Sequence record: PP400777
Length of the DNA stretch: 64,000 nt
Reading direction: 5' to 3' (one strand)
Source: Escherichia phage JM10
Part shown: piece by piece, positions 53,155-56,106 of the stretch
How the letters are laid out: every line of letters starts with the position of its first letter
How positions within the stretch are numbered: the first letter of the stretch is position 1
Program-made: the position numbers and the translations under genes
The notes under the pieces: generated by a model
Databases searched by the model: none
What the model saw: the letters and a program-made list of their open reading frames with translations, nothing else
Told to the model about the DNA's origin: nothing

Positions 53155-53427
53155 TTAGTTGTTAGAATACATCGCTAAATGACGATAAATATTTTCAAAA
53201 CCTTCATTGAATTCACTAATCAGTGTTTTCTTTTCTTCGGCAGTTAAATTTGTAATTAGTTTTCTGAACGAATTCTGATTTAGCTGCCGACCATCTTTTT
53301 TAATTCCAATCTCATTCAAGAATCCGATGAAACTTGCTCGGTCTTCAACAATATCTTCCCTAGAGAATTTAATCAAAATAGAAGCAATAGTAATAATTTC
53401 ACGTACGATTTCAATGTCTTTATTCAT
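53155..53427 (-). CDS. asiA: anti-sigma-70 factor AsiA
   Basis: 90 aa; near-identical to recalled T4 AsiA (MNKDIEIVREIITIASILIKFSREDIVE...). Confidence 0.92.
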   Translation of the reverse strand: MNKDIEIVREIITIASILIKFSREDIVEDRASFIGFLNEIGIKKDGRQLNQNSFRKLITNLTAEEKKTLISEFNEGFENIYRHLAMYSNN

Positions 53428-53461: not shown

Positions 53462-53491
53462 ATAGTACCATTATCAGTGTTGATTGTAAAC
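53462..53491 (-). promoter_or_regulatory. early promoter GTTTAC-N18-TACTAT for asiA
   Basis: Minus strand reads GTTTAC aatcaacactgataatgg TACTAT; overlaps the 3' end of the upstream small ORF. Confidence 0.55.
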
Positions 53492-53635
53492 GGCTTTTTC
53501 TACGCTTTTAACGTAATTGGTATAGTCTTCCTGTTCGTACGAGTGTAAGGCCAAGAACAGAGCTAATAGTTCATTATAGACTAAAGCCTCACGCTCACGT
53601 TCGGCCTCTACTACGTTCTGAAGATTATGGCTCAT
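53474..53635 (-). CDS. hypothetical small protein
   Basis: 53 aa from internal start MSHNLQ; 11-nt overlap with the arn stop. Confidence 0.4.
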   Translation of the reverse strand: MSHNLQNVVEAEREREALVYNELLALFLALHSYEQEDYTNYVKSVEKAVYNQH

Positions 53636-53924
53636 ATTGTTCCTTATAACTATCAATGTAGTCCTGTATGTCAAAGAATGACATTTCATATTCTAGGACA
53701 TTAAGAGCCTGTTCTTCAGTGTAGTCAGAACCAAATACGATAGTGATTTCACCGGGTTTAGAATGACTGAAATCAACACTAAACTCAATTCGAGAACAGA
53801 CTTCATCTTCCATATCTACGATAACACTACGACACACTTCTCGGTTAACCTGATAAAGCTCTGCAAGTTCTTCACATCGAATAACAAGTTCAGTGGCAGG
53901 ATTTTCTTTGATTTTAGTAAGCAT
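53625..53924 (-). CDS. arn: probable Arn (anti-restriction, McrBC inhibitor; acidic DNA-mimic-like)
   Basis: 99 aa from MLTKIKENPATELVIRCEEL; highly acidic; position next to asiA as in T4; identity by recall and synteny. Confidence 0.5.
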   Translation of the reverse strand: MLTKIKENPATELVIRCEELAELYQVNREVCRSVIVDMEDEVCSRIEFSVDFSHSKPGEITIVFGSDYTEEQALNVLEYEMSFFDIQDYIDSYKEQYEP

Positions 53925-54007
53925 AGTCTTTACCCTTATGTTTTTGTTTGCGTTTAGATTGAAGTTCTGATTTCTTCTTGTCCTTATGGACAGAAGCCTT
54001 ATTGAAA

Positions 54008-54223
54008 TCATGTTTTGCTACAAGATTGTTCATAATGATTTATAACCTCGTTTAAACATTTGTCTGTGAAAGAAAACTTTTTAGCCACAGAACATTCGAT
54101 AATGTGTTCTTTCAAATCTTTAGAGACAGTATAATCCATCTCAGTAATAAAGTGGCGAATTAAAGCTTTATTCTTATCATTAACAGAATTAAAATAATCT
54201 GCTTTAGAATCAATTATTCTCAT
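54008..54223 (-). CDS. hypothetical protein
   Basis: 71-aa ORF in the asiA-motA operon. Confidence 0.4.
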   Translation of the reverse strand: MRIIDSKADYFNSVNDKNKALIRHFITEMDYTVSKDLKEHIIECSVAKKFSFTDKCLNEVINHYEQSCSKT

Positions 54224-54491
54224 CGTATAATTTCCTTAATTGATATTGAAACGAGCTAATAATTTCTTCGTTCATTTTAATATACATGTCGCGCAAGAAA
54301 GGTTTTAACCCATCACGAATAATTGCTAACGTATCACCTTTACATAAATTAACCAAATAAGGATGGTCTAAAGCATCCCAACCAGGCTGATTAGCATACA
54401 TACCATAGTTTTCTTCCATCATATGATTAAGACGTTTGATATCTTGGATACGTGATTCAATAGCATCTTTCTGGAGTTGTTTAATATTCAT
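54210..54491 (-). CDS. hypothetical protein
   Basis: 93-aa ORF. Confidence 0.4.
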   Translation of the reverse strand: MNIKQLQKDAIESRIQDIKRLNHMMEENYGMYANQPGWDALDHPYLVNLCKGDTLAIIRDGLKPFLRDMYIKMNEEIISSFQYQLRKLYDENN

Positions 54492-54952
54492 TAGTAAAGG
54501 TCCTCAGAGTAAAGTTCTTTTTCATTACCACCACGTTCAATACGTACTTGGCCAGCGTAAGTTGCAATAATCATTGCTTCTTCACGTGTCCAATAATTAC
54601 TATATTGGTCAATAAACCCTTGGTCATCATCACAAACTTGTTGAGTAACTAATTGAGGTTTAACTACATCTAAAACTTCTGCCATATCTTTAGAATAATG
54701 ACGAACTCCAGGAATAATAAGAGTTCGTCCATCTTTTAATTTAAAACGGTTGGCTGCACAGACAATTCGTCGTTGATACTTTTGGTTTTCATCCCAATAC
54801 AAAGTCTGCCAACAGATTTCAGGAACTTCATCTAAAACATTTTGTTCTGTATATTCACCGCCGTAAGAAGCTAATTTAGCAGCCAGACTTTCCGGAGTCT
54901 CACGCGACAAAGCTTTATCTAACAGAGCTAAACGTTCTTTAAAAGTTTTCAT
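54491..54952 (-). CDS. hypothetical protein, 153 aa
   Basis: ORF with ATGA-type junctions on both sides; no recognisable motif. Confidence 0.45.
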
Positions 54953-55278
54953 TTAAACCATCCTTTAATACGTTGCCAAATAGATTTTTGTGCTTGTTTA
55001 TTTACACCAATCGAACGAATAACCGGTTGTGACTGCTGATATTCTTTATAATCTTCTTTATAGATTTCGTAAGCGGCATCAACAAATGAACTGATCGCTG
55101 CCATGTAGTTTTTACGAAGGCCAAATGGCGCGTCATTATTTTCACGAATAACCGTATATTGGCCTGCTTTAATCTTTACAATTGTCCCTAAATAAGCCCC
55201 GTGGTACCAAATATCCCATCCTTCCTGAGTAGGTTCTGCACATTTACGAAGTTCGTTAATAATATTCAGCTTATTCAT
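54949..55278 (-). CDS. hypothetical protein, 109 aa
   Basis: ORF overlapping upstream neighbour by 4 nt. Confidence 0.45.
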
Positions 55279-55288
55279 TATGTATTCC

Positions 55289-55921
55289 TCACAGTACGTT
55301 AGTTACAAGGGTAATGATTTCTTTGGACACATTAGGGAAGTCAATGTAAGTATATTTACCACCGATCTTAATCTTAACATCGTTTTCAAGAGAAGTAAAC
55401 AGCTTTGATTCAGTTTCTGACATGTTGTATGCAAAGATTCTAAGAGAACCATCTCGACGAATTTCGATCTGACGAATACCTAGAACTCGTTTTGCAAATC
55501 GAACTTCCAAGTTACTACGGTTTTCACCAATTTCTTTAACTTCAACTTTATCTTTAATATTTTCAAAAACAAAGTTTGCTAATTCATGCATTTCAGGAGT
55601 AACTCCACGTGCTTTTCTAGTGTTACGTTTCTGAAGAAGTTCCGGAGCATTTTCTTGGGCAAAGAGGTCTGCAGCTTTTTGGATAATATCCATTGCTTCG
55701 CCTGTTGCTACAAGTCCATCACCGGATTTTTCGACTAAACCTTTCTTAATCAATACACCAATGTTAGAGTTAACAACCGATGCATTGTATTCCGCTTCCA
55801 GAGCTTCACGGACATTGGCAGCAGTGGTGAAGTTGTTCTTAATGATATAAACCATTATTGCAGCAGTTTTTTCATTCAGAGCGTTTTCAGAAGCTTTGAT
55901 GATGTAAGTAACTTTAGACAT
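55289..55921 (-). CDS. motA: middle-transcription activator MotA
   Basis: 210 aa; near-identical N-terminus to recalled T4 MotA. Confidence 0.92.
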   Translation of the reverse strand: MSKVTYIIKASENALNEKTAAIMVYIIKNNFTTAANVREALEAEYNASVVNSNIGVLIKKGLVEKSGDGLVATGEAMDIIQKAADLFAQENAPELLQKRNTRKARGVTPEMHELANFVFENIKDKVEVKEIGENRSNLEVRFAKRVLGIRQIEIRRDGSLRIFAYNMSETESKLFTSLENDVKIKIGGKYTYIDFPNVSKEIITLVTNVL

Positions 55922-55989: not shown

Positions 55990-56014
55990 TGTTTTGTGAG
56001 AAAAATGCACAAAA

Positions 56015-56030
56015 GGGAGCTTCGGCTCCC
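56015..56030 (-). terminator. hairpin GGGAGC-CGAA-GCUCCC then UUUUGUG
   Basis: 6-bp GC stem with tetraloop and U-tract between gene 52 and motA. Confidence 0.6.
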
Positions 56031-56106
56031 TAATCATGTTTGTCCAACCAATACAGCCAAATCACTAGTGCAGCTATTGCACCGAGAAATCCTAAGGCTA
56101 GGGCAC

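Follow-up and report, generated by a model that had tools for sequence, protein, structure and literature searches.

The window analysed here is a 64,000-nucleotide (nt) stretch of the genome of Escherichia phage JM10 (sequence record PP400777), and the element in question is the interval between the phage genes motA and asiA. The interval contains seven open reading frames (ORFs), all of which lie on the minus strand and are tightly packed (Table 1). The source phage is a Mosigvirus, an RB69-like T-even phage with arabinosyl-hydroxymethylcytosine (hmC) in its DNA, and it is very probable that the interval represents the Mosigvirus version of the known T-even arn operon, both in the identities of its genes and in their organisation as an operon. 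The cluster is known in kind and poorly understood, and its ORFs are not novel. As the Mosigvirus form of a known arn cluster, its value lies in a cryptic orthologue of Arn, encoded by an ORF of 99 amino acids (aa; orf99), and in a lead on the T4_Y16D protein family that is offered by Arn.3. The genes appear to form a co-directional, translationally coupled series of small accessory genes in the order motA, arn.4, arn.3, arn.2, arn.1, a 39-aa ORF, arn, an asiA.1-like ORF and asiA, which by analogy with phages T2 and T4 would be expressed soon after infection.

Successive ORFs from arn.4 to orf53 overlap by 4, 1, 14, 26, 11 and 11 nt, with gaps of 10 nt between motA and arn.4 and 46 nt between orf53 and asiA, and a Shine–Dalgarno-like GAGG or AAGGA is found 6–10 nt 5′ of each start codon. 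All of the ORFs are matched by PHROG profiles (E 1e-22 to 1e-72) and the 2.9-kb region matches 753 phage records, so they are genuine genes and not chance ORFs; each is conserved across hundreds of T-even phages, related genomes annotate them, and Shigella phages JK42 and JK45 and Escherichia phage APCEc01 share 97% identity with this stretch. A preliminary description of this DNA had listed ORFs of 53, 99, 71, 93, 153 and 109 aa between asiA and motA as tightly packed and overlapping, and both their coordinates and their overlaps were verified; the list was incomplete in that it omitted the 39-aa ORF (53914-54033; DUF7230, E 5e-13). Its title spoke of four unassigned ORFs where its own text gave five, and these ORFs prove to be orthologues of T4 arn.1–arn.4 that already belong to Pfam and PHROG families. 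It had also placed motA.1 within the interval. T4 MotA.1 (a hydrophobic protein of 49 aa) finds no match at E<=10 when searched against the whole window by tblastn, and its T4 gene is located between motA and gene 52, on the opposite side of motA from the arn genes.

Table 1. Genes of the motA–asiA interval and their immediate neighbours in the window, listed from motA to asiA.
Feature	Coordinates	Strand	Properties
motA	55289..55921	-	Middle-transcription activator, upstream neighbour; Pfam MotA_activ E 2.4e-39, MotCF E 2e-8; 51% identity to T4 MotA
arn.4 orthologue	54949..55278	-	109 aa, basic, isoelectric point (pI) 9.3; phrog_1594 E 6e-53
arn.3 orthologue	54491..54952	-	153 aa; CmdA-like helix pair 1-30 and T4_Y16D (PF26092, phrog_839) core ~43-153
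arn.2 orthologue	54210..54491	-	93 aa; phrog_1844 E 6e-40
arn.1 orthologue, full-length form	54008..54223	-	71 aa; phrog_4452 E 1e-36
39-aa ORF, DUF7230, RB32ORF249c-like	53914..54033	-	Very basic, pI 10.1; Pfam DUF7230 E 5.4e-13; phrog_1359 E 4e-22
orf99, probable diverged arn orthologue, putative DNA mimic	53625..53924	-	99 aa, pI 4.15
orf53, acidic, at the asiA.1 position	53474..53635	-	53 aa; phrog_5245 E 1e-30
asiA	53155..53427	-	Anti-sigma70 factor, downstream neighbour; Pfam AsiA E 2.4e-32; 73% identity to T4 AsiA

Gene order, orientation and flanking genes are the same as in the arn operon of T4 and T2, in agreement with the order of asiA, an Arn-like gene, small ORFs and motA that had been recognised beforehand. 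Pairwise searches against T4 gave 82% identity for Arn.3 (blastp) and 40% for Arn.2 (E 4e-20, blastp). Arn.4 is 79% identical to T4 over all 109 aa of its reading frame by tblastn, and blastp aligned its C-terminal 67 aa at 76%. Arn.1 is 70% identical over 70 aa by tblastn, in an alignment that spans a stretch annotated as intergenic in T4, and blastp aligned its C-terminal 42 aa at 69% (E 1e-19). The T4 annotation gives arn.1 as 43 aa and arn.4 as 68 aa, whereas the window carries full-length forms of 71 and 109 aa. In T4 arn.4 (locus L003 3335-3457, minus strand), ATA takes the place of the ATG with which the full-length 109-aa form begins in other phages, and the 41 codons upstream of the annotated gene contain no stop and remain conserved (79% over 109 aa); the T4 protein either is a truncated form of 68 aa or starts from a codon other than ATG. 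The 39-aa ORF shares its first nucleotides with the end of arn.1 and its last with the start of the Arn-like gene; it is annotated in related phages, and the T4 reference genome holds a 79% identical copy that is unannotated (locus L003 2200..2084, minus strand). The homology of orf53 to asiA.1 is weak: an N-terminal similarity of the MSHNL type was found (30% identity across 40 aa, with E 1e-3 when a database of nine proteins was searched), tblastn against the T4 locus gave no match at the asiA.1 position, and it is by its position in the sequence that orf53 would correspond to that gene. The families to which these ORFs belong are of unknown function (PF26092 T4_Y16D, PF26821 and phrog_4452, phrog_1844, phrog_839 and phrog_1594). 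In several records (for example NC_031090) the product name ‘anti-restriction nuclease’ sits on the homologues of Arn.1, Arn.3 and Arn.4, and the true Arn-like 99-aa gene is called ‘hypothetical’; this label appears to have been carried over from the gene names and is not evidence of function.

The Arn-like gene is the member of the cluster in which a form without pairwise-detectable similarity to T4 and T2 arn is found. The protein has 23 aspartate and glutamate residues against 8 lysines and arginines (T4 Arn: 16 against 7, pI 4.55, 92 aa), and its gene is located between arn.1 and the asiA.1-like ORF and asiA on the same strand, as is T4 arn. When a family alignment of the 99-aa protein, including its distant copies, was compared with T4 Arn using hhalign, a score of 30.9 was obtained (P 3.6e-5, probability 71%) over 80 collinear columns that cover nearly all of both proteins and end in a common C-terminal (I/L)(Q/E)DY(I/F) motif. 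None of 400 column-shuffled controls (200 per alignment) reached this score, their mean being 11, standard deviation 2 and maximum 21.5. The predicted fold of orf99 is the Arn fold as in PDB 3WX4, and of all structures in the PDB library T4 Arn matches it best (8.4, against 6.9 for the next). On the strength of the profile–profile match together with position, size and charge, orf99 is very probably homologous to T4 Arn, and the earlier designation of this highly acidic 99-aa protein as a probable Arn agrees with all four. Set against T4 Arn, a McrBC-inhibiting DNA mimic of similar length and strong acidity at the same position, orf99 has an identity of about 15–16%, seven extra C-terminal residues and a net charge of about -15 rather than -9. 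By analogy with T4 Arn, the 99-aa protein would form an acidic DNA-mimicking dimer that could fill the site at which McrBC-type type IV restriction enzymes bind DNA (possibly that of H-NS too), and blocking such enzymes might protect hmC DNA before it is glycosylated.

Several observations weigh against homology with Arn and have to be set beside this. Neither blastp nor tblastn matched orf99 with T4 Arn, a phmmer search of all PDB sequences (including 3WX4) gave no match even at E 10, and the structure of orf99 is a prediction from a shallow alignment of seven sequences. The absence of pairwise similarity, the identity of 15% in the structural alignment and an hhalign probability no higher than 71% would also be expected if the 99-aa protein were not a functional Arn at all, with an acidic protein having displaced arn in the RB69-like phages and acting upon another target, such as a different nucleic-acid-binding host protein or defence; in that event the likeness in fold would come from a small alpha/beta fold that is common in itself, or from descent from a very remote ancestor with no target in common. 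The selective pressures on the two proteins may differ, as Mosigvirus DNA contains arabinosyl-hmC and not glucosyl-hmC (PMC6024577; PMC8594841). Against such a replacement stand the exactly equivalent position between arn.1 and the asiA.1-like ORF, the similar length and charge, an end-to-end collinear alignment that was never equalled by shuffled controls, and the clear lead of T4 Arn among PDB structural matches, and we consider it distinctly unlikely. T4 Arn has also been reported to bind H-NS, a further target to be borne in mind in that case.

The two forms of Arn, as orf99 and its relatives and the T4 type would be, have almost separate distributions. The T4 type was found in 485 phage records, with all copies at least 88% identical and no Mosigvirus among the matches listed, and the 99-aa type in 178 records of Mosigvirus, Dhakavirus and Gaprivervirus, the Dhakavirus and Gaprivervirus copies being 32–37% identical and located at the same position. 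In Escherichia phage AugustSocin (Bas38), a Tequatrovirus, a Mosigvirus-type pair of 53-aa and 99-aa genes replaces the T4-type asiA.1 and arn (locus L016 7203-7653), and the two forms have therefore been swapped between genera by recombination. The assignment is in line with the BASEL annotation, which already names the 99-aa gene Arn, and with a comparative study from 2021 in which the RB69-like and Gaprivervirus groups were stated to possess Arn (PMC8056088).

The second gene of interest is arn.3. A search for homologues of Arn.3 returned 162 proteins, in which the conserved part is the C-terminal ~110 residues; these homologues carry PF26092. The same part of the protein (residues 43-153) is confidently folded as a T4_Y16D domain in the structural model. 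When 1.84 billion cluster representatives were searched with a profile, 3385 clusters were matched at a threshold of E<=1e-3, of which 1418 reached E<=1e-10, and the best 150 matches listed were mostly stand-alone proteins of about 90–140 aa. The profile phrog_839 (function unknown) takes in all 145 sampled members of the family and matches Arn.3 of the window at E 1e-72; the same 145 members have no known Pfam domain, nor does any of ten longer T4_Y16D-containing proteins (225–434 aa). On plasmids the family is almost absent, with a single match. In the window, Arn.3 conserves R61, A66, A67, R84, H85, Q111, G112, F113, D115, R123, Q135 and the C-terminal LYSEDLY; across the family, conservation extends to the CAA of the first strand, an Arg–His pair, QGFxD, RxxA and GQ, and the C-terminus is always L(F/Y)SE(D/N)LY. 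The model of the core, confident as it is, has no match to any solved fold, and a fold search of BFVD using Arn.3 retrieved only uncharacterised phage proteins. Three of the BFVD matches were to ‘large polyvalent protein associated domain’ (LPD) proteins; these were weak (E 4e-3 to 3e-2), no Pfam LPD domain was found in the 145 family members, and the relationship was rejected. An invariant constellation of Arg, His, Gln and Asp residues together with the fixed C-terminal SEDLY suggests that the T4_Y16D core could be a ligand-binding or catalytic domain, one that would be common to thousands of phage proteins.

The namesake of PF26092 is T4 Arn.3, of which the Arn.3 of the window is a close relative. 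Most members of the family are stand-alone domains of 90–110 aa, and the T-even proteins add an N-terminal extension of ~42 residues. In Arn.3 of the window this extension is 48% identical to that of T4 Arn.3, compared with 96% for the core, from which it follows that the N-terminus either diverges much faster than the core or has been swapped between phages. Arn.3 is best described, we infer, as a two-module protein that would join a fast-evolving N-terminal helix pair (modelled helices at residues 4-14 and 20-28) to an almost invariant core, and the helix pair is probably a protein-binding adaptor. The first 30 residues match positions 1-30 of the 77-position PADLOC profile PD-T4-9_B (E 9.3e-9), as do those of 8 of 35 Arn.3 homologues; T4 Arn.3 is matched weakly (E 0.0026). 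PD-T4-9 is CmdTAC, a toxin–antitoxin–chaperone system of P2-like prophages that restricts Tevenvirinae (PMC9519451; PMC11618068), and its component B, encoded by the gene that stands between cmdT and cmdC, is taken as the antitoxin CmdA, which is described as two helices at the N-terminus with an unstructured tail behind them (PMC11618068).

Scanning of genomes with the Arn.3 N-terminus led to a P2-like prophage of Lelliottia wanjuensis, in which the CmdT, CmdA and CmdC profiles are matched by three genes lying side by side (E 2e-90, 4e-34 and 3e-55), and an E. coli copy with the same P2-like prophage context and an annotated SecB chaperone gene was also retrieved. Arn.3 aligns without gaps over 30 residues to both CmdA proteins, at 67% and 56% identity; the Smith–Waterman scores lie 15–17 standard deviations above those of shuffled sequences, none of 2000 of which reaches the real score. 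As judged from sequence comparison, the N-terminal segment of Arn.3 has been copied from, or is shared with, a CmdA-type bacterial antitoxin. The likeness is confined to the two-helix segment at residues 1-30: unlike CmdA, Arn.3 lacks the unstructured chaperone-addiction tail (PD-T4-9_B positions 31-77 are unmatched) and continues instead into the folded T4_Y16D domain, it has no adjoining ADP-ribosyltransferase or SecB-like gene, and it is encoded by a lytic phage rather than by a P2-like prophage. The CmdT and CmdC models match no ORF of the seven in the motA–asiA interval, and the neighbours of arn.3 are arn.4 and arn.2. A DNA-level search of E. coli genomes for the CmdA-like segment found nothing. 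The resemblance between Arn.3 and CmdA appears to be unreported in the literature that was searched, where arn.3 and arn.4 are named nowhere but in a preprint on phage T2 and the word ‘arn’ is absent from the main text of the CmdTAC paper (PMC11618068). The gene 063 product of Klebsiella phage Geezett (Jedunavirus; locus L011 2198-3160), a largely low-complexity protein of 320 aa, contains a CmdA-like module at residues 103-132 (E 2.7e-9), and as it is present in this protein the module is mobile among unrelated phage proteins.

The preliminary description had named the 153-aa and 109-aa proteins (Arn.3 and Arn.4) as candidates for anti-restriction or anti-defence functions. In this direction the analysis brought up one circumstantial lead for Arn.3, its CmdA-like N-terminus, and nothing for Arn.4. 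It could be proposed that Arn.3 is a counter-defence protein directed at CmdTAC-type systems, with an N-terminal helix pair that would imitate the portion of CmdA by which the toxin is bound. Without the unstable tail, Arn.3 would stay on the mRNA ADP-ribosyltransferase CmdT after the infection-triggered degradation of CmdA, and the core may stabilise this module or add an activity. The profile match and its occurrence in eight homologues, the gapless identity to the CmdA proteins of two cmdTAC operons and the two modelled helices shared with CmdA are all consistent with such a role, Tevenvirinae are specifically restricted by CmdTAC (PMC11618068), and an N-terminus that evolves faster than the core is as expected of an arms-race interface. 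Published plating nevertheless showed that the CmdTAC system of ECOR22 restricts T4 and the Mosigvirus Bas46 by 1e3- to 1e5-fold, Bas46's efficiency of plating (EOP) being 3e-5. The Arn.3 N-terminus of Bas46 shares 17 of 28 residues with CmdA and is a variant 64% identical to that of the window; since a phage with such a CmdA-like variant is still restricted, an anti-CmdTAC role is only a lead, and its simplest version is disfavoured by the plating results. The BASEL phages that escape, Bas35 (EOP 0.85) and Bas38 (EOP 0.32), are not more CmdA-like (14 of 28 residues each), and T4 escape mutants map to alt.-3 and not to arn.3 (PMC11618068). The CmdT-binding part of CmdA is itself inferred, and the same module occurs inside the unrelated 320-aa Klebsiella phage protein. 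Taken together, we regard this role of Arn.3 as very doubtful, and slightly more doubtful still is its extension to the T-even Arn.3 proteins in general, which would be modular counter-defence factors with a diversifying CmdA-like helix pair that captures CmdT-family toxins and a T4_Y16D core that serves as stable scaffold or enzyme; if true, this would be the first function for a phage protein family of >3000 sequence clusters. The type of Arn.3 N-terminus was also considered as a correlate of CmdTAC escape among the BASEL phages and was rejected, there being no correlation. In Bas35, Arn.3 is Dhakavirus-like and a further ORF of 51 aa lies between arn.3 and arn.4.

The remaining proteins of the cluster (Arn.1, Arn.2, Arn.4 and the 39-aa peptide) are, as far as their sequences allow, conserved T-even accessory proteins. 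The 54 homologues (clusters) of Arn.4 are 47–98% identical, all have PF26821 and all come from T4-like phages. Searches of Pfam, NCBIfam and PDB sequences with all seven ORFs returned nothing beyond DUF7230, and no significant PDB sequence match was obtained with the Arn.4 profile, Arn.2 or Arn.1. Two PADLOC hits were weak and were treated as noise: Arn.2 matched positions 227-294 of the 333-position Hp1 profile (E 3.7e-4), and 32 residues of Arn.4 matched REase_II, which models a type II restriction enzyme (E 1.7e-3). The preliminary description had regarded this region of T4 as poorly characterised, which still applies, the functions of arn.1–arn.4 being given as unknown in a 2026 preprint on T2 (bioRxiv 10.64898/2026.06.19.733364). 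An alternative to anti-defence is that Arn.1, Arn.2, Arn.4 and the 39-aa and 53-aa ORFs modulate host or phage gene expression, with RNA metabolism or the nucleoid as further possible targets. The genes are co-oriented with, and lie between, the transcription-takeover genes asiA and motA, there is no convincing PADLOC, Pfam or PDB match of known function, and both Arn.4 and the 39-aa peptide have a strongly basic character that would suit nucleic-acid binding; however, positive evidence for any such target is nil, and the accessory regions of T-even phages are functionally heterogeneous, which makes neighbourhood a weak predictor. A common role of this kind is on balance unlikely.

How the cluster is transcribed can be considered in the light of T2, where arn.4-arn.3-arn.2-arn.1-arn is described as one abundant transcript (bioRxiv 10.64898/2026.06.19.733364). 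Scanning for promoters identified a sigma70-like site 5′ of motA (TTTACA-16-TATTAT with a TG, 55988-55961) and a sigma70-like site of its own for asiA at 53490-53462, in the 46-nt gap. Two points bear on whether all of these genes belong to a single operon. A scan using a MotA-box pattern found no middle-promoter site in the window; the same pattern found none in the T4 locus and is hence uninformative, and operon status is for that reason argued from the packing of the genes and from the T2 data. Because it has its own promoter-like site, asiA is probably not strictly within the arn transcription unit. A perfect G+C-rich hairpin (AGGGAGC-TTCG-GCTCCCT, 56014-56031) is situated between gene 52 and the motA promoter; it was scored as terminator-like on the plus strand and, being palindromic, could also terminate the minus-strand transcripts of gene 52.

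Post-transcriptional control may be a point of difference between the phages. In T2, the 70-nt intergenic region between arn.2 and arn.1 carries an RNase E site beside a site of pairing with ArcZ (bioRxiv 10.64898/2026.06.19.733364). The T4 stretch of the same size (locus L003 2307-2376, minus strand) aligns with the sequence that encodes the N-terminus of Arn.1 (71 aa) in the window (70% over 70 aa), and in the window arn.2 and arn.1 overlap, so that the RNase E-site spacer of T2 is missing. The end of T4 arn.2 contains CCAGGGAAA, which we take to be the ArcZ-complementary site. This sequence is absent from the window, where its counterpart is TTAAGGAAA (54210-54250 region, minus strand), which forms the ribosome-binding site of arn.1. 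Since TTAAGGAAA is present instead of CCAGGGAAA and the spacer is occupied by coding sequence, the ArcZ control known from T2 may not apply to the Mosigviruses.

The RB69-like, Dhakavirus and Gaprivervirus phages, which are without Arn when judged by pairwise search, most likely do have Arn, and orf99 illustrates how rapidly DNA-mimic proteins diverge. Such cryptic Arn proteins bear on the prediction of type IV restriction sensitivity in therapeutic T-even phages. The CmdA-like N-terminus of Arn.3, for its part, provides a testable lead for T4_Y16D/phrog_839, a family that is very widespread in phages.

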